Positions 26,260 to 39,377 of a stretch of DNA of 64,000 nucleotides are shown here, in pieces. The position numbers and the translations under genes were made by a program. Below the pieces are notes generated by a model. It made no database searches. It worked only from the letters and a program-made list of their open reading frames with translations, and was not told the origin of the DNA. The DNA is from an uncultured Hormoscilla sp. (lineage in GTDB: Bacteria; Cyanobacteriota; Cyanobacteriia; Cyanobacteriales; Desertifilaceae): positions 3,328,001 to 3,392,000 of the forward strand of contig OZ001293.3 of the NCBI GenBank assembly GCA_963921275.4, read 5' to 3'. Every line of letters begins with the position of its first letter. Within the stretch, counting starts at the first letter, position 1.

Positions 26260-27612
26260 ATGTCACGACTTAGAAATATTCAAATCTACTTGAAGACTAT
26301 CGCTCACGCACATATCAGTGGAGAAAAGGGCATTGGGTCAGACTTCAGGATTGTTACGAAGCTCGGTACTGCAGCAGCCCAAATCCTAGAAATCATGGTT
26401 CCAAAGGATACTACCAAGACTGATATTGATTTTGAGGTCTACAACGCTACCCACAGTAGGAAATCTGCAACAAACCCATTCCTATCCTTACCTCTACAAG
26501 TATCAGTTACAGAGCGCGACGAAACACCTGATATAGCCTTGGGTTCTGCGTCCTGGCAGATTAATTTAGATCGGTTCTCTACTGCAGATACACCCAATGT
26601 GTCTCAGCAAACCCAGATTGACATTCAAGTCTCCGAGCAAGTGCCAGTAAGTCTTTCCCAGCAAAAGAGCGAAAATCTAGGTTTCTTGCCAACACCCACT
26701 GCCAAAATTTCAATCACCTACGAGGCTTTCGTTACCCTCTACGAGGATCCTTGTTTCAAGACTATCTTCGACGCCGAAACTACCAAAAAATCTATTAGTA
26801 CGCCTAACAGCGAAGAAACTGTTAGTAACAGCGAAGAAACTGTTAGTAACAGCGAAGAAACTGTTAATAACAGCGAAGAAACTGTTAGAGAAGCGATTTC
26901 ACTGATTCTTGCAATTGCTAAAGAACGGAATGTAACTGGCGACCAACTCGCTTACATATTAGCCACTGCGATTGATGAATCTAGATTGGGGAATGATATG
27001 GTTGAGGGAGAGAAGGAAGGTCAAGACTATGAGAATAGTCAATTTCTGGGTAATATCAATCCCGGGGATGGTGTTAAATACAGAGGCCGAGGCTATTCTC
27101 AATTAACCGGAAGAATAGATTATAGTTACTGGACTCAACGTCTTCAAACCGAAGGTTACCTGAGCCAAGAGCAGAGCTTGGTTGAAACGCCAGAGCTTGC
27201 TACCGATCCGGAAATTGCCGCACGAATTCTAGTTGTGGGTCTCCAAGAAAACACTTTCTCTCGGTTGACACCTGTTTCGGGTTATCCGGATACCCGTTTG
27301 GCCGATTATGTAAAGGAGCGCATGTCTCAGGAGATTTCTGAGGAAGAGGCGAGGCAAGAGGCCCGAGGTGTAGCGACAGATATTCTTGCTAGCGGGAGGA
27401 CCTTTGCCGATTTTATGCCTGATTTTCCCCAACCAGAGGAAAAAGAAGAAGTTGGCCTTAGTGAAGCACAGCAGGACCAGCTTCGCCAAGGTTTTGTCAA
27501 TGCCAGGGATATAGTCAATTCAGGAGACTCAGATAAAAATAGAGCTAAGATTGCTGGTTATGCTCTCAAATATTCAAAAGCAATCAGAAAGTCGGGATGT
27601 ATCGGGAAATAA
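26260..27612 (+). CDS. Protein with C-terminal GH19-like (lysozyme/chitinase) domain and NSEETVS x4 linker
   Basis: QLAYILATAIDES, LGNINPGDGVKYRGRGYSQLTGRIDY, ARDIVN; 21-bp tandem repeat 26806-26889. Confidence 0.85.
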   Translation: MSRLRNIQIYLKTIAHAHISGEKGIGSDFRIVTKLGTAAAQILEIMVPKDTTKTDIDFEVYNATHSRKSATNPFLSLPLQVSVTERDETPDIALGSASWQINLDRFSTADTPNVSQQTQIDIQVSEQVPVSLSQQKSENLGFLPTPTAKISITYEAFVTLYEDPCFKTIFDAETTKKSISTPNSEETVSNSEETVSNSEETVNNSEETVREAISLILAIAKERNVTGDQLAYILATAIDESRLGNDMVEGEKEGQDYENSQFLGNINPGDGVKYRGRGYSQLTGRIDYSYWTQRLQTEGYLSQEQSLVETPELATDPEIAARILVVGLQENTFSRLTPVSGYPDTRLADYVKERMSQEISEEEARQEARGVATDILASGRTFADFMPDFPQPEEKEEVGLSEAQQDQLRQGFVNARDIVNSGDSDKNRAKIAGYALKYSKAIRKSGCIGK

Positions 27613-28130
27613 GTCAAGGGCGGGATTTTCTATGGTCGAGTTGGCCAACTTGACTAGAGTCTCCAGTTTGCCTACCTTGATTCCCAGAGCGTAACGATAT
27701 CCATCTTGATCCCACATAAGATAAGCTCTGGAACATCTAGCCTGGTACGTATAGTCGGCAAAGTAGCCCGTGATATTTTGTGCCAAGGGGATGACTTCTC
27801 CTTCTAAAGGATCCTTAGACTCCGAGGCTAACTTCACTATCAAAACCCCCGGGGTGCAGACTGATTCCCCTGAACAATGTGGAGTGTACATCATGGATAT
27901 TCCATATCCTGTTGGTTCTACAAACCAGATCCTGGAGTAAAGCGGCGATTTTCCTGTATGTTCGATGACTCGTATGGGTAAGCGCAAGGGCGCAGAGATT
28001 TGTGCTTGAAGATCTTTAATTAAGGGTGCAAATATTAGATCGACTGGAGCCGTGCTCGTCGCGATTACACCGGTGTTGCCCAGTAAGGACATCATTCAAG
28101 CTTAAACGGAATCTCGATAAGATTTTGTTC
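27574..28130 (-). pseudogene. Degenerate tandem paralog of the 28016-28804 secreted protein
   Basis: Shares PLIxDLQA..PLRLP, GEVIPLAQNITGYFAD, WDQDGYRY; start codon changed (GCG vs GTG) and signal-peptide region frameshifted. Confidence 0.7.
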
Positions 28131-28804
28131 GCAAGCCGAATCGGATTTCCTGTTTTGAAGTTAAAGTATTCTCTAGAGATCGGCTTTAAGTCACTTAACT
28201 TGCTGATGAGGCTCTCGCCTATTCCCAAGCGATCAGAGGAGCGGGCGGGGAATGAGTCAAGGACGGAATTTTCTATGGCCGAGTTGGCCAACTTTACTAG
28301 AGTCTCCAACTCTACTAGAGTCTTCATTGTGTGTGGCCTCATTCTCAGATAGTAACGATATCCATCTTGATCCCAAATAAGACGGGCATTGGAACAGTTA
28401 TAGTGAGGCCCGATACATATAGAGTCGGCAAAGTAGCCCGTGATATTTTGTGCCAAGGGGATGACTTCCCCTTCTAAAGACTCCTGAGACTCCGAGGCTA
28501 ACTCGACAAAGAAAACGCCCTCAACGCAGACTTTCTTTATTTCGCACACTGAAAAGGCTCTCATGCGTATTCCATATCTTGTTGGTTCTGCAAACTGGAT
28601 CTTGGAGTAAATCGGCGATCGTTCTGTATGTGGGATGACTCCTATTATGGGTAAGCGCAAGGGCACCGAGGTTTCTGCTTGAAGATCTTCAATCAAGGGT
28701 GCAAATACTGGATCGACTCGAGTACAGGTAGTCGCAAGCACACTGGTGTTTGTCAGTAAGGTCAGCATCAAGCCTAAACCGAATCTCGATAAGATTTTGT
28801 TCAC
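28016..28804 (-). CDS. Secreted Cys-containing hypothetical protein
   Basis: N-terminal signal peptide; reads through into start of the paralog. Confidence 0.7.
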   Translation of the reverse strand: MNKILSRFGLGLMLTLLTNTSVLATTCTRVDPVFAPLIEDLQAETSVPLRLPIIGVIPHTERSPIYSKIQFAEPTRYGIRMRAFSVCEIKKVCVEGVFFVELASESQESLEGEVIPLAQNITGYFADSICIGPHYNCSNARLIWDQDGYRYYLRMRPHTMKTLVELETLVKLANSAIENSVLDSFPARSSDRLGIGESLISKLSDLKPISREYFNFKTGNPIRLANKILSRFRLSLNDVLTGQHRCNRDEHGSSRSNICTLN

Positions 28805-29744: not shown

Positions 29745-29931
29745 CCACCCTCTTTATAAAAAAACTGCATGATTCTAGTATCAGCGATTTTTTCCTATTT
29801 GTGAGTGATGGAGCGCAGATCCACTTGGTGACACTTACTTAAAAATCCTATGACGATCGTCATGGACAAATTCAAAAAAATGTGGTAATAGCTGTAACGA
29901 GCGGGTAAAATGACTAGATTTTGCAACAGGT

Positions 29932-30074
29932 AAAACTCATGGCACAAGCAAAGATTGGGATTATCGGCGGTAGCGGTCTGTACAAATGGACGTCCTCCAG
30001 GATGTAGAAGAAGTACAAGTTGACACGCCTTTCGGTCCCCCTTCTGACTCCATCATCGGAGGTACCCTCTCCGG
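29932..30074 (+). repeat. Degenerate duplicate of the mtnP 5' end (direct repeat with 33219-33362)
   Basis: About 143 bp near-identical with a 1-nt deletion. Confidence 0.95.
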
Positions 30075-30093
30075 AACAGACCACTGACCACGC

Positions 30094-30441
30094 CTAAAAA
30101 TACATTTTTGTCTGATAGATCTCAACTGGGTTATCATCTGGATCGAGGCATCTAAAAAATCGCCCTCCCTGTTTAGAAGAAATCTGCTGCAAAATTTTTA
30201 CTCCAAATTGGACCGCATTATTGTAAGCTGGCTCTAATAATTTGATTTCCAAGCAGATAGTAGCATTCCTCTCTAGAGTATTACTCGGTACTTCGCTGCT
30301 TTTGAGATTATTTAATTGCTGTAAGACAATGCGATCGCATCTCACTAAACCCTTTGATTCCTTTTCAACTTTTATACCTAAAACCCTTTCATAAAAAAAC
30401 CGTGCTTTTTCCAGGTTAACAACCGGTAAGTTAACTGTCAT
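30094..30441 (-). CDS. VOC/glyoxalase family protein
   Basis: LPVVNLEKARFFYERVLG and FFRCLDPDDNPVEI motifs. Confidence 0.85.
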   Translation of the reverse strand: MTVNLPVVNLEKARFFYERVLGIKVEKESKGLVRCDRIVLQQLNNLKSSEVPSNTLERNATICLEIKLLEPAYNNAVQFGVKILQQISSKQGGRFFRCLDPDDNPVEIYQTKMYF

Positions 30442-31865
30442 TTGACAGACATCAACCGGTTGTCTATCTCATACTGGTTTTCATCCTTCATTTCATTTTT
30501 CTGGCGTGACAGCTTGGTGATATACAAAGTTTGACCGTCAACAGTCCTTACTTTCCAATAATTTGCCACTGTTGTTTTAGATAAAGGCTGATGCTGTTGT
30601 CTATCAGATATATTAGCTTCTCTGCCATCTGGAATCACAACAAGATCGCCATTATTTGACACGGCAAGTTCTTCCAGGAAAGAATTAAGATGTTTTTTTC
30701 TAGTCTCAATAGCCATCTGAGCTTGACCAGCACCTTGATTTTTAACTAAATTTTCTGCCAATTCTCTAATATACCTAGCATCCTGAACTTGCTCTGCATA
30801 GTCACCTAACCATTCAATTCCATGGACAGCACCGAGAATTCCACCGGTCATGGATGCAATAGTATCGGTGTCAGCTCCAAAAGCGAATGCTGGGAATTTA
30901 AGACCATTAATTGGATCGGCGGCGTAGCGCGAAGCCAGAAATATGGCAGCAGCCGCACTCACGGTTCCAGCACCTTTATGACTGGAAAAACATCCTAGTT
31001 GGGTAAGTACCTCCCGATCAACTGGGAGGGCACCTTGTTTCATTCCCTGTTGGCATTGTTCCAGCAGCTTTTTCATCTCCTCAACAGTCGATCGCCAATT
31101 CTTTTGATATGCTCCAGCATTGACTTTTTTAGCGGCAGGTTTCCAGGTGGGGAAAATATCATCCAACTCTGGCAACTCCGACCAATACTTAACTTCTTCT
31201 AGCACTCGGTCAATAATTGCGCCGTAGGTCAGAGTATTTGTTTCTCGCAAAGCGATCCAGACTGCAAAGCTATAAACAAGAGCGCCAACTAATGCCCTCG
31301 GATGACCGTGGGTACAAACGCCATTCACAACTACATTCTTAGCAATGGAGCGAAAATTCGTTCCCGTTGCACCTAATAGACAGTGGGGCAAAATTCGCAT
31401 TGCCACACCATTACCACCCGCATTAAAGTATTTCTGATTATCTGCAGCTTTCGGAGCAGACCAAGGCTCTTTTCCAGCTAGCCATTGCTTTGCAGCTCGT
31501 GTTGTAGCTCCACCACCATTTCGTTTGTAACAAGTCCAAGTTGGCAGCTCCTTTTTTGTCAAGTGATGCCACCACTGCTGACCGAAAAGGAGGCTTCTAG
31601 CAGTGCAGAGGAGCAATTGAGTATCGTCGCTGTATTCCCCTGGAAGGATTACTTTTTCATGTGGATAATATTGACCTCCCGATCGGCGTACCCATCGTTG
31701 GAATCTATCGACTGGCGATTTTTCTGAAGAAGCTGCTTTCCGATCGATTCTTTTCGCTTCCATTTCTTGGGGCCATCCCAGTGCATCGCCAACTGCAGCG
31801 CCCAGAAATGCTCCTTGCGCCTTGGCAATTATAGAAAGCCCGTTGTGGCGATTATCATTAGTCAT
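30438..31865 (-). CDS. ADP-ribosylglycohydrolase (ARH/DraG family) with C-terminal extension
   Basis: GAAVGDALG, YSDDTQ, GNGVAMR, THGHP, DTDTIASMTG metal-binding motifs all intact. Confidence 0.93.
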   Translation of the reverse strand: MTNDNRHNGLSIIAKAQGAFLGAAVGDALGWPQEMEAKRIDRKAASSEKSPVDRFQRWVRRSGGQYYPHEKVILPGEYSDDTQLLLCTARSLLFGQQWWHHLTKKELPTWTCYKRNGGGATTRAAKQWLAGKEPWSAPKAADNQKYFNAGGNGVAMRILPHCLLGATGTNFRSIAKNVVVNGVCTHGHPRALVGALVYSFAVWIALRETNTLTYGAIIDRVLEEVKYWSELPELDDIFPTWKPAAKKVNAGAYQKNWRSTVEEMKKLLEQCQQGMKQGALPVDREVLTQLGCFSSHKGAGTVSAAAAIFLASRYAADPINGLKFPAFAFGADTDTIASMTGGILGAVHGIEWLGDYAEQVQDARYIRELAENLVKNQGAGQAQMAIETRKKHLNSFLEELAVSNNGDLVVIPDGREANISDRQQHQPLSKTTVANYWKVRTVDGQTLYITKLSRQKNEMKDENQYEIDNRLMSVK

Positions 31866-32578
31866 GTTTCATTCCTCTCAATCCAAAGTATTTCTTGAGG
31901 TCGCTTACCCAAATTAATCAAATTACTCAAATCATATCTTTTACTCCAAGTTGGAAACAGAGTTGGTGCGATTACAAAATCAAACCTATCTGATGGTTCT
32001 CCCAAAAGGTTCAGGCGTACCACCTCGTTTTTCGCTTGGGTTTCCGTTGCCACGGCTATTGCTATTATATCCGATATCCCAATTTTGTCTGGAATGAGAA
32101 CTTCGGCCTGGTTATCTGTGGGACAGCACGCTAAATGGTTATCTGAGCGATTAAATGTTATCTCTCTAGAGCCAACAACGGATTTGGCAAACATTGATAA
32201 AAAAGCATCTGCACCTTCGGCGATGTTCCTTCCATAATTAGAAGCAGCATTTCGCGGACAAAAACGAGTTCCAGGTAACCAGAGGTACTTAGGCTTGATG
32301 AACAGAACTACCCAATCTTGGAATATGCTTTCCCTAGAGCGAGCATTGTCAAAGTACCAGACATTGGGATATTCAATTGAACAACTGGTGTATCCATCAT
32401 GCCGGTCGTGTCTACCCGGGTCTGTTGCCGTAAAAACACTACCTTCTGATTTTAAATGTTTTGTCGCCAGGATGCCTCTGGTTCCAGTTAAAATGTGAAC
32501 GAGGTTTCGCGATGGGGTAAAGTGACAAAGCCTCGTTATTCCACGACTTTCTGCTTCGTGCTTAATCGCATCAATCAC
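31862..32578 (-). CDS. darT: DarT-family (DUF4433) DNA ADP-ribosyltransferase
   Basis: LCHFTPSRNLVHIL..GIL N-terminal motif, SIEYPN, NAAS, catalytic QAEVL. Confidence 0.85.
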   Translation of the reverse strand: MIDAIKHEAESRGITRLCHFTPSRNLVHILTGTRGILATKHLKSEGSVFTATDPGRHDRHDGYTSCSIEYPNVWYFDNARSRESIFQDWVVLFIKPKYLWLPGTRFCPRNAASNYGRNIAEGADAFLSMFAKSVVGSREITFNRSDNHLACCPTDNQAEVLIPDKIGISDIIAIAVATETQAKNEVVRLNLLGEPSDRFDFVIAPTLFPTWSKRYDLSNLINLGKRPQEILWIERNET

Positions 32579-32581
32579 CGG

Positions 32582-33136
32582 TTATACGATATCGGGGAGC
32601 CCTCTAAAGTAGGGCATATTTGCAATTTCCGGACCCAACTTAGCAATTTGTTGCGTATTCCGATAGTTTTCTTTAAATTCCCATACCTTGATGTCAAGTC
32701 CCGCCTCTCGCCAAGAAATCCGATGTCCATAAATCTGCTGAGCCACATCTCCGAAGAATGTCAGGGAACCATCAGCAGGAATTGCTTTAGCTAGCGATCG
32801 GATCATTTCTGGCGAGAAGTCTTGTCCTTCGTCAATCACGACTACGTGCCGATAGCGACAGCCAAGATAGCCCCTGGCAAACTTGTGGTAGTTCTCCACA
32901 ACTACATCAGCTATGCTGTCCTCTTGTAAATGTTTCAGGTAAGAGACCAAAACGCTGTTAAATGTAATTAACAGCGTTTTGCCGTGATGGTCTATCTTTC
33001 GATTGGCAAGATAGGCTGCTCTTAAAATTGCCAGTATGGTTTTCCCACTGCCGGCAGTTCCCAACACTGCTATGTGTCCCTGGGCTGGCAGGTATAGTAC
33101 TTCTTTTTGGCGACCGATCGGTTTTGGCAGACTCAT
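32582..33136 (-). pseudogene. Truncated UvrD/SF1 helicase
   Basis: Motifs I (GTAGSGKT), Ia (ITFN), II (DEGQD), III (GDVAQQIY), IV (NYRNT) in 184 aa; motifs V/VI absent. Confidence 0.85.
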
Positions 33137-33225
33137 GCTTTGACTACTCTGGACCTGCTCCCAAATCATCTATCTTGATTATAACCCAGTAAACTAGACA
33201 TGGCAACCAAATCTAGGAAAAACTC

Positions 33226-34113
33226 ATGGCACAAGCAAAGATTGGGATTATCGGCGGTAGCGGTCTGTATAAAATGGACGCCCTCCAGGATGTAGAAGAA
33301 GTACAAGTTGACACGCCTTTCGGTCCCCCTTCTGACTCTATCATCCTCGGCACCCTCTCCGGCAGCCGGGTAGCCTTCCTGGCCCGTCACGGTCGCAATC
33401 ATCATCTCCTGCCCTCGGAGTTGCCCTTCCGTGCCAATATCTATGCCATGAAGAGTTTGGGCGTGGAGTATCTGATCTCTGCTTCCGCTGTTGGTTCCCT
33501 CAAAGAAGAAGTCAAACCAATGGATATGGTGCTGCCCGATCAGTATATCGATCGCACCAAGAATCGAACTTCCAGCTTTTTCGGGAACGGGATTGCAGCC
33601 CACATTGCTTTTGGTCATCCCGTCTGTAGTCAATTAGCTGGAATTCTTGCCGATGCAATTGCCAATTTAGAATTACCAGATATCACCCTGCATCGCGGCG
33701 GCACATATATCTGCATGGAAGGTCCAGCATTTTCTACTCAGGCCGAGTCAAATCTTTATCGCAGCTGGGGGGCGACAATAATTGGCATGACAGCTTTGCC
33801 CGAAGCGAAGTTAGCCCGGGAAGCAGAAATCGCCTATGCAACCTTAGCTTTAGCAACTGATTACGATTGCTGGCATCCAGACCACGACCATGTAACCATA
33901 GATATGGTGATTGATTATCTCCGACGCAATGCCATCAATGCTCAAAATGTAATTCAAGAAACTGTCAAGCGTCTGAGCGCCAATCCTCCCCTGTCTGATG
34001 CTCACTCCGCCTTGAAGTTCGCAATTTTAACCCAGCCCGATTTTTCCGGAACGGTGCAAATGCCTGCGGTTACCAAGGATAAGCTAAAATTGTTATTGCA
34101 AAAGTATTTATAA
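33226..34113 (+). CDS. mtnP: S-methyl-5'-thioadenosine phosphorylase
   Basis: [34 protein letters not shown]. Confidence 0.96.
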
Positions 34114-37175: not shown

Positions 37176-39377
37176 TCATACCACCTTATAAATGAAGCTG
37201 AGGGTTGCCCAGGCATTCACATCCAGGGCAAAGGAGTCCGTCGTCGATAGCCCCAGATCCGAGGCCGATGGTTGACTCGCCTCGTGCAAGTCCTCTAGCA
37301 GTGCCTGTACCACCTCTAAAGGATTCGCAAGGATACCCTCGGGGTTATCCATTCCCCCCTTAGATTTTGCTGCTGCCTCTAAGGTCTTAGTAAAAGGAGC
37401 AATACTGAAAATCAGTTGAGTTTCCACCAGTCCTGGCGAACCCTTCACAGCCCATTCCACCGAGGCAAAAGCATCAGGCACAACTATAGTTTTCCTTGGG
37501 GGAATGACTTGTTTGGACCCGATGGATCTTGCTGTGTCTCCCCCACGCCCTTGAGAGTTTTTTCCCGAAGATGCCACTGGCGAGACAGTTACCTTCCCAG
37601 GCACAGAGATGCTAATTTTATTGCTATTGCTATCCAAGCCAAACAAGAGGAAGTAAACTGGGTCAGACTGCTGATTGGACAGCCAGTAGCTGATCCTGCT
37701 GCCAACTGGTACCTCCAACGTTCCGAGTTCAGCCGCCTGGGATATCTCCACCCAGTCTGAGGTTTGGACTCTGATTATTTCTCCTTGTATGATTAACCGC
37801 TGGGACTCTGAGATCTTTCCTAGGGCAGCTTTCACCCCCAAACGAGAAGAGCCCGCGTTTTCTGTCAGCCGCAACAATTTGGCCGCTCGCAGACCTTGCA
37901 ATTCCGGTGTCAGCCGCTGCACAGCTTTTTTCACCGCTTCCCCTTTAGATCCTCCTGTATTGCCAATGGGAATATTTGCTGGCCAGAACAGGCCGTAACT
38001 CTTCTGAAGCCCTGAGGGGTTGTCACCATTATCTACTTTACCAAACAGGCAATCTACTGAGACTGGAGATTTTTCGATCGTCACTGTCTTGACATTGGCA
38101 ACACCTGAAAAAGCACTGGTAGCATCCACCCGCTCAATGAGTTCCAACCCAGGGCTCAGTCCCACTGTCAATGACAAAGAACGGGGTAAGACCCTGATTG
38201 CTTCTTGGACAAATTGCCCCACTACTATCGAGTCCCCTGTTTTTATATTTGCCTTTGTCGTCAGACCCTCACAGGATCTCAGCTGCAATTGTGCCTCTGA
38301 CTGTAGCACCCTCAGCAGAGAATTAACGCCATAATTTTCTAGTATATTTGGCAGTAGTCCACCCAGCCACAGCTGTGCGGTTTTGCCATCTTCCTCTACC
38401 CCCCTAACTACGCCATCAGCCCCCAATATACTGTTCGGAGTGAGGTAATCACTTTTTTTCCCAATCAACCTTGGCTGCTCTTCGTTACTAGCTAGTCGCT
38501 CTACTACTCCCGATGCCTGAGAGAAACTGACTTGTAGGGTGGTCGCTGGTGTTGCTAACCACAGTTGCTGGGTGAGGGCGTAGGTAAATAGACCAGTGCT
38601 AAACCCATTCCATTGCGCCTCAAATGCTTTCCTCCCTGTCCCCTGGGGGTTCGCCGTGGGGTTTACCGCCGCTAGTACCATCCCTGGTAGTTGACTAACG
38701 TTCTGGAGTTTTGCTCTCTCTGCCCATAGATCTTGTCGGAGTTTTTCTGGCACAGCTAGTGCCTCACTGCTAGGTTCTCCTAGCACTGCATCATTACGAG
38801 CCCGCAGCCACAAGGAACCCACTAGCTGCTCATCAGATACCTTAAGGTAGCTCGTATCTAGGATAGTTATCACCTTCTCCGTCCGCAGCAGGAGCAGCAG
38901 CAGATGCAGCCTTTCGGTCAATAAGTCATTCACCTGAGGATTTGCTGGTGATGGATCTCCCCCATCCACTGGCACCAAAGTGTTTTGCACTACTTCTCCC
39001 TGGATCGCCTGCCTACCATAGCCACTGAAGTGGAATACTACCAGATCGTCAGCACCTGCCTGTTCTATCAGATGCTCGATAAAGGCGGATTCGATCTGCT
39101 CCCTTGTGGCTTGCCGATCTGTTAGGGTGAGAATATCATCTGCACTGAAGCCAAACCGATGGATTAGCAGTAAGCGTTGTAGTTCTACATCTGTGACGCT
39201 ACCTGCAAGTGCTGCTGTGGGATACTGGTTGATGCCCACTAGCAGAGCTAACTTCCGGCTGGTGGGTTGGGCTAGGGCTTGGTAATAGCGCCTTCCCAGT
39301 AGTGACAGTCCAGCCTCACTAATTCCCAGGGCTGCCATTGTCCAGCCCAGCCGTTGCAAAAAATCCCGCCGTTTCAT
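37176..39377 (-). CDS. Caspase-like (peptidase C14) protein with Tat-like signal, pseudo-orthocaspase type
   Basis: MKRRDFL; KLALLVGINQY; HFSGYG and LDTSY replace catalytic HG/DxC. Confidence 0.88.
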   Translation of the reverse strand: MKRRDFLQRLGWTMAALGISEAGLSLLGRRYYQALAQPTSRKLALLVGINQYPTAALAGSVTDVELQRLLLIHRFGFSADDILTLTDRQATREQIESAFIEHLIEQAGADDLVVFHFSGYGRQAIQGEVVQNTLVPVDGGDPSPANPQVNDLLTERLHLLLLLLRTEKVITILDTSYLKVSDEQLVGSLWLRARNDAVLGEPSSEALAVPEKLRQDLWAERAKLQNVSQLPGMVLAAVNPTANPQGTGRKAFEAQWNGFSTGLFTYALTQQLWLATPATTLQVSFSQASGVVERLASNEEQPRLIGKKSDYLTPNSILGADGVVRGVEEDGKTAQLWLGGLLPNILENYGVNSLLRVLQSEAQLQLRSCEGLTTKANIKTGDSIVVGQFVQEAIRVLPRSLSLTVGLSPGLELIERVDATSAFSGVANVKTVTIEKSPVSVDCLFGKVDNGDNPSGLQKSYGLFWPANIPIGNTGGSKGEAVKKAVQRLTPELQGLRAAKLLRLTENAGSSRLGVKAALGKISESQRLIIQGEIIRVQTSDWVEISQAAELGTLEVPVGSRISYWLSNQQSDPVYFLLFGLDSNSNKISISVPGKVTVSPVASSGKNSQGRGGDTARSIGSKQVIPPRKTIVVPDAFASVEWAVKGSPGLVETQLIFSIAPFTKTLEAAAKSKGGMDNPEGILANPLEVVQALLEDLHEASQPSASDLGLSTTDSFALDVNAWATLSFIYKVV

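Follow-up and report, generated by a model that had tools for sequence, protein, structure and literature searches.

A decaying helicase-DarT-ARH-VOC module in a Hormoscilla genome, probably of the same kind as the anti-phage system DarHTG

This report concerns a minus-strand gene cluster encoding a helicase, a DarT-family ADP-ribosyltransferase, an ADP-ribosylhydrolase (ARH) and a VOC domain, located in a 64,000 nt stretch of an uncultured, sponge-associated Hormoscilla sp. (assembly GCA_963921275.4, contig OZ001293.3, positions 3,328,001 to 3,392,000; this whole stretch is called the window below). The closest described system is DarHTG (Liu-DS3), published in Nucleic Acids Research (NAR) on 8 April 2026 (PMC13069673). 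According to the main text of that paper, DarHTG consists of a UvrD-family helicase without a 2B domain (DarH), a DarT and an ARH-like protein (DarG3). In E. coli, the system protects against T4, T5, T7 and SSL_2009a with an abortive-infection-like behaviour, and protection requires the active site of DarT as well as the ATP-binding residues of the helicase. A DarG3 mutant was not obtainable, as expected of an antitoxin, and DarHTG was found across several phyla.

The cluster in the window and its relatives resemble DarHTG, as described there, in several respects. A helicase-DarT-ARH operon is present in the window, in seven further genome loci (L001-L007) and in metagenome loci, the helicase is of the UvrD family and lacks 2B, an ARH fold takes the place of a macrodomain or NADAR, and the distribution covers multiple phyla. 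In contrast, the ATP-binding helicase is required in the published system, whereas the helicase in the window is broken, as are all three genes. Since the architecture is that of DarHTG, the kind of system is already known, and we consider it probable, at roughly three in four, that the window contains a decaying copy of a helicase/DarT/ARH-barrel-VOC module of the same kind as DarHTG. The initial annotation had proposed a new operon type; the locus adds no new kind, as the helicase-DarT-ARH combination with DarG3 has been in print and phage-tested since April 2026.

Other described systems are more distant. In the literature covered to early 2026, only macrodomain and NADAR antitoxins are named for DarT (the consulted part of a paper from 2022 lists solely "DarT-Macro/NADAR" pairings), and an earlier in silico prediction of a DarT-ARH pairing is possible. 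DarT1-NADAR of E. coli C7 (DarTG1; cited part of PMC11543638) has the closest solved DarT relative (8baq) and shares the catalytic Glu, the Arg/Asp relay, the guanine Asn and an antitoxin directly downstream. It differs in the antitoxin itself, which is NADAR (PF22397) rather than an ARH-barrel-VOC protein, in Met71, which is Tyr here, and in the helicase, which always lies upstream here. No NADAR match was found in the genome of the window (96.7% completeness), and the gene downstream of DarT is the ARH. With DarTG2 (cited part of PMC5179494) the module has in common the Pfam family of its DarT and a toxin-antitoxin principle in which an enzyme reverses the modification; the antitoxin there is the macrodomain protein DarG, whereas here no DarT2 structure was matched and there is no macrodomain neighbour. 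The locus has no Macro match; two such matches occur at other places in the genome, which also has a separate DarT-Macro pair of its own. In line with the initial annotation, neither a macrodomain nor a NADAR gene adjoins the module. In Tre1-Tri1 (PDB 6dre, 6drh), an ARH-fold protein also neutralises an ADP-ribosylating toxin, and Tri1 is among our structure and sequence matches; Tre1, however, is secreted, modifies proteins and belongs to another ADP-ribosyltransferase (ART) clade, with neither a helicase nor a DNA target. Finally, the defence helicases of Gabija (GajB) and NERD+UvrD are the best-scoring PADLOC models for the helicase, but no GajA-like nuclease or NERD domain is found here, the partners being DarT and ARH.

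An open reading frame (ORF) check recovered the four annotated minus-strand ORFs, including both 4-nt ATGA overlaps, and a Pfam search confirmed the assigned domains. These ORFs and the deletions discussed below are:

32582..33136, minus strand: UvrD-like helicase remnant (DarH-like), a pseudogene, from Pfam UvrD-helicase/AAA_19 and comparison with L001
31862..32578, minus strand: DarT-family ADP-ribosyltransferase, apparently of DarT1 type; 238 codons from the junction GTG; PF14487; catalytic residues kept
30438..31865, minus strand: ARH (DraG-fold) domain, helix and small SH3-like beta-barrel (DarG3-like), severed from VOC; 475 codons; PF03747
30094..30441, minus strand: VOC domain (glyoxalase/bleomycin-resistance fold), separate 115-codon ORF from a formerly internal Met; PF00903
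32856..32859: junction of deletion 1, 351 nt in frame, corresponding to L001 4900-5250; from blastn of the window against L001
32576..32584, minus strand: junction of deletion 2, 473 nt, corresponding to L001 5530-6001; new helicase TAA, then CCG, then the junction GTG
30466..30474: deletions of 24 nt and 4 nt in the ARH-VOC inter-domain linker; from a DNA alignment with L001 and L007

The ORF of the helicase remnant extends over 32582-33169 (minus strand, 195 codons), and the Met at 33136 is the start used by relatives; it matches UvrD-helicase/AAA_19 with an E-value of 4e-11. DarT matches PF14487 with 8.1e-19 (68.6 bits, cut-off 22.5), and the ARH matches ADP_ribosyl_GH (PF03747) with 1e-40, while NCBIfam gave distant DraG and Tri1 matches only. 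The additional C-terminal region of about 100 residues noted for the ARH is present. The VOC ORF matches Glyoxalase (PF00903) with 9.4e-7 and 29.7 bits; the VOC domain of the Microcoleus locus L002 reaches 41.6 bits.

Decay of the copy in the window

The reference for decay was the Hormoscilla locus L001, which shares 94-97% identity with the window and has the same location next to an MTAP-like phosphorylase gene. The two deletions in the helicase removed 117 internal codons and everything after PDIV, i.e., the whole 2A domain, which carries the motifs KGLEFD and VGVTRAK in L001; Walker A and the DEGQD motif are retained. Deletion 2 took the entire second motor domain and ends one base into the ATG of DarT. 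The junction GTG stands in for this ATG, and a GAA-to-TAA change two codons upstream terminates the helicase frame. The helicase had been called truncated, which is correct as to its length, but misses its two deletions relative to L001. In the linker, the deletions of 24 and 4 nt shift the frame, such that the ARH ends at the TGA of the ATGA at 30438-30441 and VOC begins at a formerly internal Met. This overlap is therefore a product of deletions inside a gene which is fused in relatives. Consequently, the supposed four-gene operon corresponds to three genes in intact relatives, with ARH and VOC of the window being one split gene.

Assembled contigs (Logan) from sequencing runs were compared at these places. 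Two runs (X1, X3) have the deleted form with no differences; they are possibly the source sample and, therefore, not independent. Two sponge-metagenome runs from another study (X5, X6) have the undeleted form at all three places: 361 letters between window positions 32842 and 32856 in X5, 473 additional letters at 32577 in both, and insertions at 30466-30474 in both. In L007, from another Hormoscilla metagenome-assembled genome (MAG), DarT is frameshifted, and ARH and VOC are split there too.

The ratio of nonsynonymous to synonymous substitution rates (dN/dS) was computed against L001 from small substitution counts and is 0.72 for the helicase remnant, 0.55 for DarT, 0.36 for ARH and 0.41 for VOC, compared to 0.16 for the neighbouring MTAP-like phosphorylase gene. 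In the DarT tree described below, the end branch of the window sequence measures 0.11 versus 0.02 for its sister L001. Thus, the copy in the window is decaying, with all three genes broken. A defence function of this copy is very unlikely since the helicase motor is lost, part of its first domain and the whole second one being gone. The remainder amounts to no more than a weakly expressed toxin and its antidote on their way to being lost; some toxin-antidote activity may persist, but the evidence does not support it.

The initial annotation had explained open DarT and ARH frames among decayed neighbours by addiction, meaning that both survive as an active toxin-antitoxin pair for which the helicase is dispensable. 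We regard this as unlikely, though it deserves serious consideration: both frames are open with all catalytic motifs kept, their dN/dS is below 1, the arrangement TAA-CCG-GTG could permit translational re-initiation, and the sister MAG locus L007 as well as L035 combine a broken or shortened toxin with a whole ARH domain, as if the toxin goes first. However, neither the ATG nor any native upstream sequence of the window DarT is left, ARH and VOC are split, and both DarT and ARH are under clearly weaker constraint than the housekeeping gene beside them. Further, the window DarT branch is five times as long as that of its sister, and the helicase, here without its second motor domain, needs its ATP site in the published system (main text of PMC13069673). 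The functional interpretation of the initial annotation was thus largely right at the family level, while neither its novelty nor addiction is supported. More generally, this one symbiont lineage provides a natural decay series with intact, helicase-deleted and toxin-frameshifted forms, which bears on how the parts depend on each other.

Two further DarT loci occur in the genome of the window. One (C1:1602837-1603877; L009, L013) has a canonical DarT with 227 bits to the Pfam model and, behind it, a macrodomain gene whose match contains a TAA; the other (C1:5484283-5484789; L010) is a third DarT match, interrupted by a TAG and without a partner. Given these stop codons and the deletions in the module, all three DarT loci of this genome show some damage. 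At the reference locus, the phosphorylase gene beside the module is interrupted (L001 1486-3283), and visual inspection of the ORFs near it suggests a group II intron reverse transcriptase/maturase carrying an HNH tail.

Conservation of the three-gene module

A scan of genomes, one per species, with the window DarT protein found eight loci. Seven of them (L001-L007) have the order helicase-DarT-ARH-VOC, and L008 is a DarT fragment alone. The hosts of the seven are Hormoscilla (twice), Microcoleus, Scytonema, Spirulina, a Chroococcales MAG and an Armatimonadota MAG. The same order was found in three further cyanobacterial genomes, although one of these loci, L023, is on the same contig as L004. 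In intact loci, the helicase has 463-477 residues, DarT 232-238 and the ARH-VOC protein, a single chain, 589-606, and gene ends overlap by 4 nt. VOC is joined to ARH in L001-L005 and L021-L023; the third protein of the Armatimonadota locus L006 has 416 residues and only half a VOC domain.

Metagenomes were scanned with an alignment of DarT, which yielded 185 relatives; the best 80 were kept as loci (with the duplicates L038/L039, L041/L042, L045/L046, L096/L097 and L102/L103), and partner genes were located by tblastn. ARH lies directly downstream of DarT in 75 of the 80, and the five misses have at most about 100 nt left after DarT. The helicase is upstream in 70 loci; in nine of the ten others DarT begins no more than 142 nt from the contig end, and the tenth (L071) has a 5′-truncated DarT. 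Among 46 complete third genes, 41 carry VOC, 40 found by BLAST and one more by Pfam. The predicted recurrence of a DarT-ARH linkage with a helicase as third partner is thereby borne out, as is the suspicion that ARH and VOC are fused elsewhere. The conserved module is composed of three genes, encoding a helicase (ca. 465 aa), DarT (ca. 235 aa) and a fusion of ARH, a small barrel and VOC (ca. 600 aa).

The last domain of the third gene appears exchangeable because DUF5677 or unnamed regions replace VOC in some loci. In L099 (5696-8119), DUF5677 (E-value 4.6e-20) follows ARH and barrel in place of VOC; L102/L103 and L108 have unnamed C-terminal regions, and the third gene of L073 ends right after ARH. 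Being usual, yet replaceable, VOC is probably an accessory part for binding or dimerisation.

Beyond cyanobacteria, the module is present in Armatimonadota (L006, L114), on a Ralstonia megaplasmid and on a Streptomyces plasmid. For the ARH-VOC fusion, 2733 relatives reach E ≤ 1e-10, and Burkholderiales, Rhizobiales and Sphingomonadales account for many of them. The spread within cyanobacteria is sporadic: including the window genome itself, 8 of 401 sampled genomes have a match at E ≤ 1e-5 and only four a close orthologue. In the Armatimonadota sample, 5 of 301 genomes match at E ≤ 1e-20. The scan with the DarT alignment found no relatives in viral contigs. Comparing the genome and metagenome loci, no additional flanking gene recurs beyond three closely related loci.

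A stand-alone, divergent NADAR gene (PF08719, E-value 7.9e-45) lies upstream of the helicase in the Microcoleus locus (L002 3951-4412, minus strand), and NADAR fragments occur at the equivalent place in L021, L029, L031 and L003; none were found near the other loci. NADAR was considered as a hidden antitoxin or core part and rejected, being limited to Microcoleus-like loci and Scytonema and absent from the genomes of the window and of L006.

Intact relatives of the helicase (463-477 aa) have UvrD-helicase and UvrD_C domains. Residues 20-285 align to 36-302 of M. tuberculosis UvrD1 and residues 379-453 to 552-621 of E. coli UvrD, leaving about 93 residues where UvrD (DNA helicase II) has about 250. 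With the boundaries we take for the 2B domain of UvrD, this short segment suggests that the intact helicase is a UvrD-family member without 2B. For the L002 helicase, the best PADLOC models are C3a187 (2.4e-27) and GajB (2.1e-23). The other parts are hardly represented in PADLOC-DB 2.0.0: ARH and VOC have no match, the window DarT a weak one (7.9e-6) and the L002 DarT none. The combination is published as DarHTG, but not in that catalogue. A helicase next to a different DarT pair was observed in Armatimonadota (L117 4626-10311), where a DarT1-NADAR pair with an 805-residue DarT protein precedes a UvrD-like helicase of 849 residues; linkage to a helicase is thus not confined to ARH-type systems.

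Toxin and antidote

The window DarT matches E. coli C7 DarT1 (8baq) with an E-value of 2.6e-18, and a profile of its clade does so with 3.1e-34; no DarT2 structure was matched by either at E ≤ 1. In DarT1, according to the cited part of PMC11543638, E152 is the ART Glu, N104 the guanine-coordinating Asn (His in DarT2), R52 and D54 form the Arg/Asp proton relay, and M71 is essential in the E. coli C7 protein. In the alignment to 8baq, E152 corresponds to the E of QAEVL in the window, N104 to N110, and R52 and D54 to R56 and D58; the HFT motif is kept, and M71 corresponds to Tyr75. The mapped catalytic columns are invariant or nearly so across 42 sequences, including the annotated HFT and QAEVL motifs. 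We infer that the DarT of the module belongs to the DarT1 branch (guanine type), and the initially suggested different acceptor base is not supported, given this DarT1-like active site and its guanine-coordinating Asn.

A maximum-likelihood tree was calculated from 53 DarT domains with 200 bootstrap trees. A single branch (91/88; 93% of the bootstrap trees) sets off the 45 ARH-linked DarTs, amid NADAR-linked ones, and 43 helicase-linked DarTs form a clade with a support of 96/98. The two other DarTs of the window genome, one Macro-linked and one broken and partnerless, stand apart (100/98). Due to long branches, the deep order of the tree is unsure. Among distant DarT relatives (29-36% identity; six loci from five genomes), PF22397 (NADAR-DarT1) is downstream in all six cases. 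Since the nearest DarT relatives pair with NADAR, a DarT1 lineage probably exchanged NADAR for ARH, once.

A second ARH-linked clade was observed in two cyanobacterial genomes (L024 1900-8542; L025 5231-8698) and on a plasmid of Nostoc sp. C052 (L120 1-6053). Its DarT domain, about 40% identical, is located at the end of a protein of 511-679 residues, one of which has a cold-shock domain, and the downstream ARH has 466-505 residues and no VOC. In L024 and L120, a large AAA_11/AAA_12-type helicase or AAA protein lies upstream of DarT; the module on the Nostoc plasmid adjoins pglZ of BREX. The small domain of the main clade can be aligned to the C-terminal extension of the second-clade ARHs, with a D/SGQS motif in common. 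The SH3-like barrel is thus kept in both ARH-linked clades.

The metal-binding Asp motifs annotated for the ARH (GDALG, SDDT, DTDT) are present, with D29, S81-D82-D83-T84 and D334-T335-D336-T337 invariant across 42 ARH sequences. The L002 orthologue was modelled with AlphaFold from a 42-row alignment (mean confidence, pLDDT, 87); the model comprises an ARH domain (1-376), a helix with a small barrel of four strands (394-458), a disordered linker (462-483) and VOC (488-599). Foldseek with the ARH domain model returned MJ1187, ARH3 and Tri1 with a probability of 1.00. Modelled alone, the barrel reaches a pLDDT of 86; its fold matches are weak, with VIA-align Z-scores of 6.0-5.0 for a chaperone and EF-P domain I, and 4-4.7 for Tudor/SH3-like folds; EF-P domain I, CarD and the Tudor domains of PcrA/UvrD together span 4-6. 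A naming of the barrel family was tried and rejected as these matches are too weak; "SH3-like" refers to shape only. The VOC profile matches uncharacterised glyoxalase-family proteins and FosA/FosB. The VOC fold is seen in the L002 model, and among its conserved columns only E595 falls at a position we take to be a metal ligand. A complex prediction of the ARH-VOC protein with DarT gave scores of 0.00, 0.35 and 0.00 and was counted neither for nor against pairing.

Taken together, the following mechanism is proposed. DarT would most likely attach ADP-ribose to guanine N2 of single-stranded DNA since the ART Glu, the Arg/Asp relay and the guanine-reading Asn are kept. The ARH domain would most likely remove this adduct, because it occupies the position of the NADAR antitoxin of DarT1 systems. 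The helicase without 2B would either gate the toxin or supply single strands to DarT. The weakest step is the ARH chemistry. Tentatively, and with somewhat less than even confidence, we propose that DarG3-type antitoxins are the first ARH-fold enzymes to cleave a nucleobase-linked adduct (guanine-N2-ADP-ribose in DNA), that they arose once by an exchange of NADAR for ARH, and that barrel and VOC are functional in docking to DNA or helicase, dimerisation or sensing. If true, removal of ADP-ribose from a DNA base by an ARH would be new enzymology, as the ARHs tested so far are inactive or nearly so on such adducts.

Alternatively, the ARH might reverse protein ADP-ribosylation within the system, on the helicase or on DarT, as a DraT/DraG-like switch without any DNA repair. 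This explanation, which we judge to be rather improbable, would fit the characterised ARHs among our matches (DraG, ARH1, ARH3, Tri1), which act on protein- or phosphate-linked ADP-ribose, and the reported lack or near lack of activity of ARH-type enzymes on base-linked adducts (cited parts of PMC11833690 and PMC12879935). It would leave unaccounted for the location of the ARH at the exact NADAR position of sister DarT1 systems and the conservation of the DNA-reading Asn together with the other DarT1 catalytic residues; the failure to obtain a DarG3 mutant in E. coli (main text of PMC13069673) also points to detoxification.

A comparably low probability is assigned to the assumption that the present family and DarHTG of E. 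coli are independent assemblies, such that VOC-bearing modules form a separate system type. The main text of PMC13069673 names neither VOC or glyoxalase nor DarT1 or NADAR, and it likewise contains no mention of a barrel or of guanine, its supplementary figures lying outside this statement. No E. coli protein is among the best 120 of the 2733 ARH-VOC relatives, blastn in a distant mode found no DNA match to the Ralstonia module in 5,426 E. coli genomes, and the second clade with another helicase type (L024, L120) indicates that partners exchange. Nevertheless, the defining features coincide with those given in the paper's main text (DarT accompanied by a short UvrD-family helicase that lacks 2B and by a third gene of ARH-like type), and the family spans many phyla including Pseudomonadota, just as DarHTG is reported across phyla. 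Our points on the origin from DarT1, on the second clade and on the VOC and barrel domains appear to go further than that main text. The comparison sharpens the picture of DarHTG to that of a DarT1-derived toxin with a guanine-reading residue, an ARH in the place of NADAR, and an antidote normally of three domains with an exchangeable end. That the ARH-VOC protein hydrolyses small-molecule ribosides in metabolism and merely adjoins DarT is hardly credible, given its adjacency to DarT in 75 of the 75 metagenome loci with enough room, across phyla and with 4-nt overlaps, and the absence of transporter or kinase neighbours and of a conserved flanking gene.

Returning to the favoured reading of the window as a decaying module of the DarHTG kind with a guanine-directed toxin and an ARH antidote, several points weigh against it. 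The DarT and ARH frames of the window are still open and under some constraint (dN/dS below 1), so a residual function is possible. In L052, a split ARH stands beside an intact DarT frame, which does not fit a simple dependence on the antitoxin, unless the split is a sequencing error or the helicase, also split there, is needed for toxicity. We know of no ARH enzyme with demonstrated activity on ADP-ribose linked to a base in DNA. On guanosine-ADPr RNA, an ARH-like enzyme did not act (cited part of PMC11833690), and ARH3 was without activity on thymidine-ADPr in DNA (PMC12879935). The M71 position of DarT1 is nearly invariantly Tyr in the ARH-linked clade, as in the window, so that the chemistry or target of this DarT may differ. 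Finally, the likeness to DarHTG, as published in the main text, is one of architecture.

Flanking repeat and neighbouring genes

A direct repeat of about 147 nt, 93-97% identical, brackets the module at 29928-30074 and 33215-33362, with a spacing of 3287-3288 nt:

29928..30074, plus strand: left repeat copy, duplicating part of the MTAP-like phosphorylase gene at its 5′ end; from a repeat search
33215..33362, plus strand: right repeat copy, the true start of the phosphorylase gene 33226-34113; from a repeat search and a PNP_UDP_1 match

The same bracketing repeat is present in L001 (4391-4521 and 8533-8660). Contigs from four runs link 33273-33287 back to 30000; this join may simply reflect how the repeat is handled in the assembly graph, or it may hint at a tandem or circular form.

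Pfam gave no match for two adjacent paralogous ORFs on the minus strand (27574-28095 and 28016-28804; 173 and 262 codons). A caspase domain (Peptidase_C14, E-value 1.5e-13) is found in a 733-codon protein encoded further on, at 37176-39377 on the minus strand.

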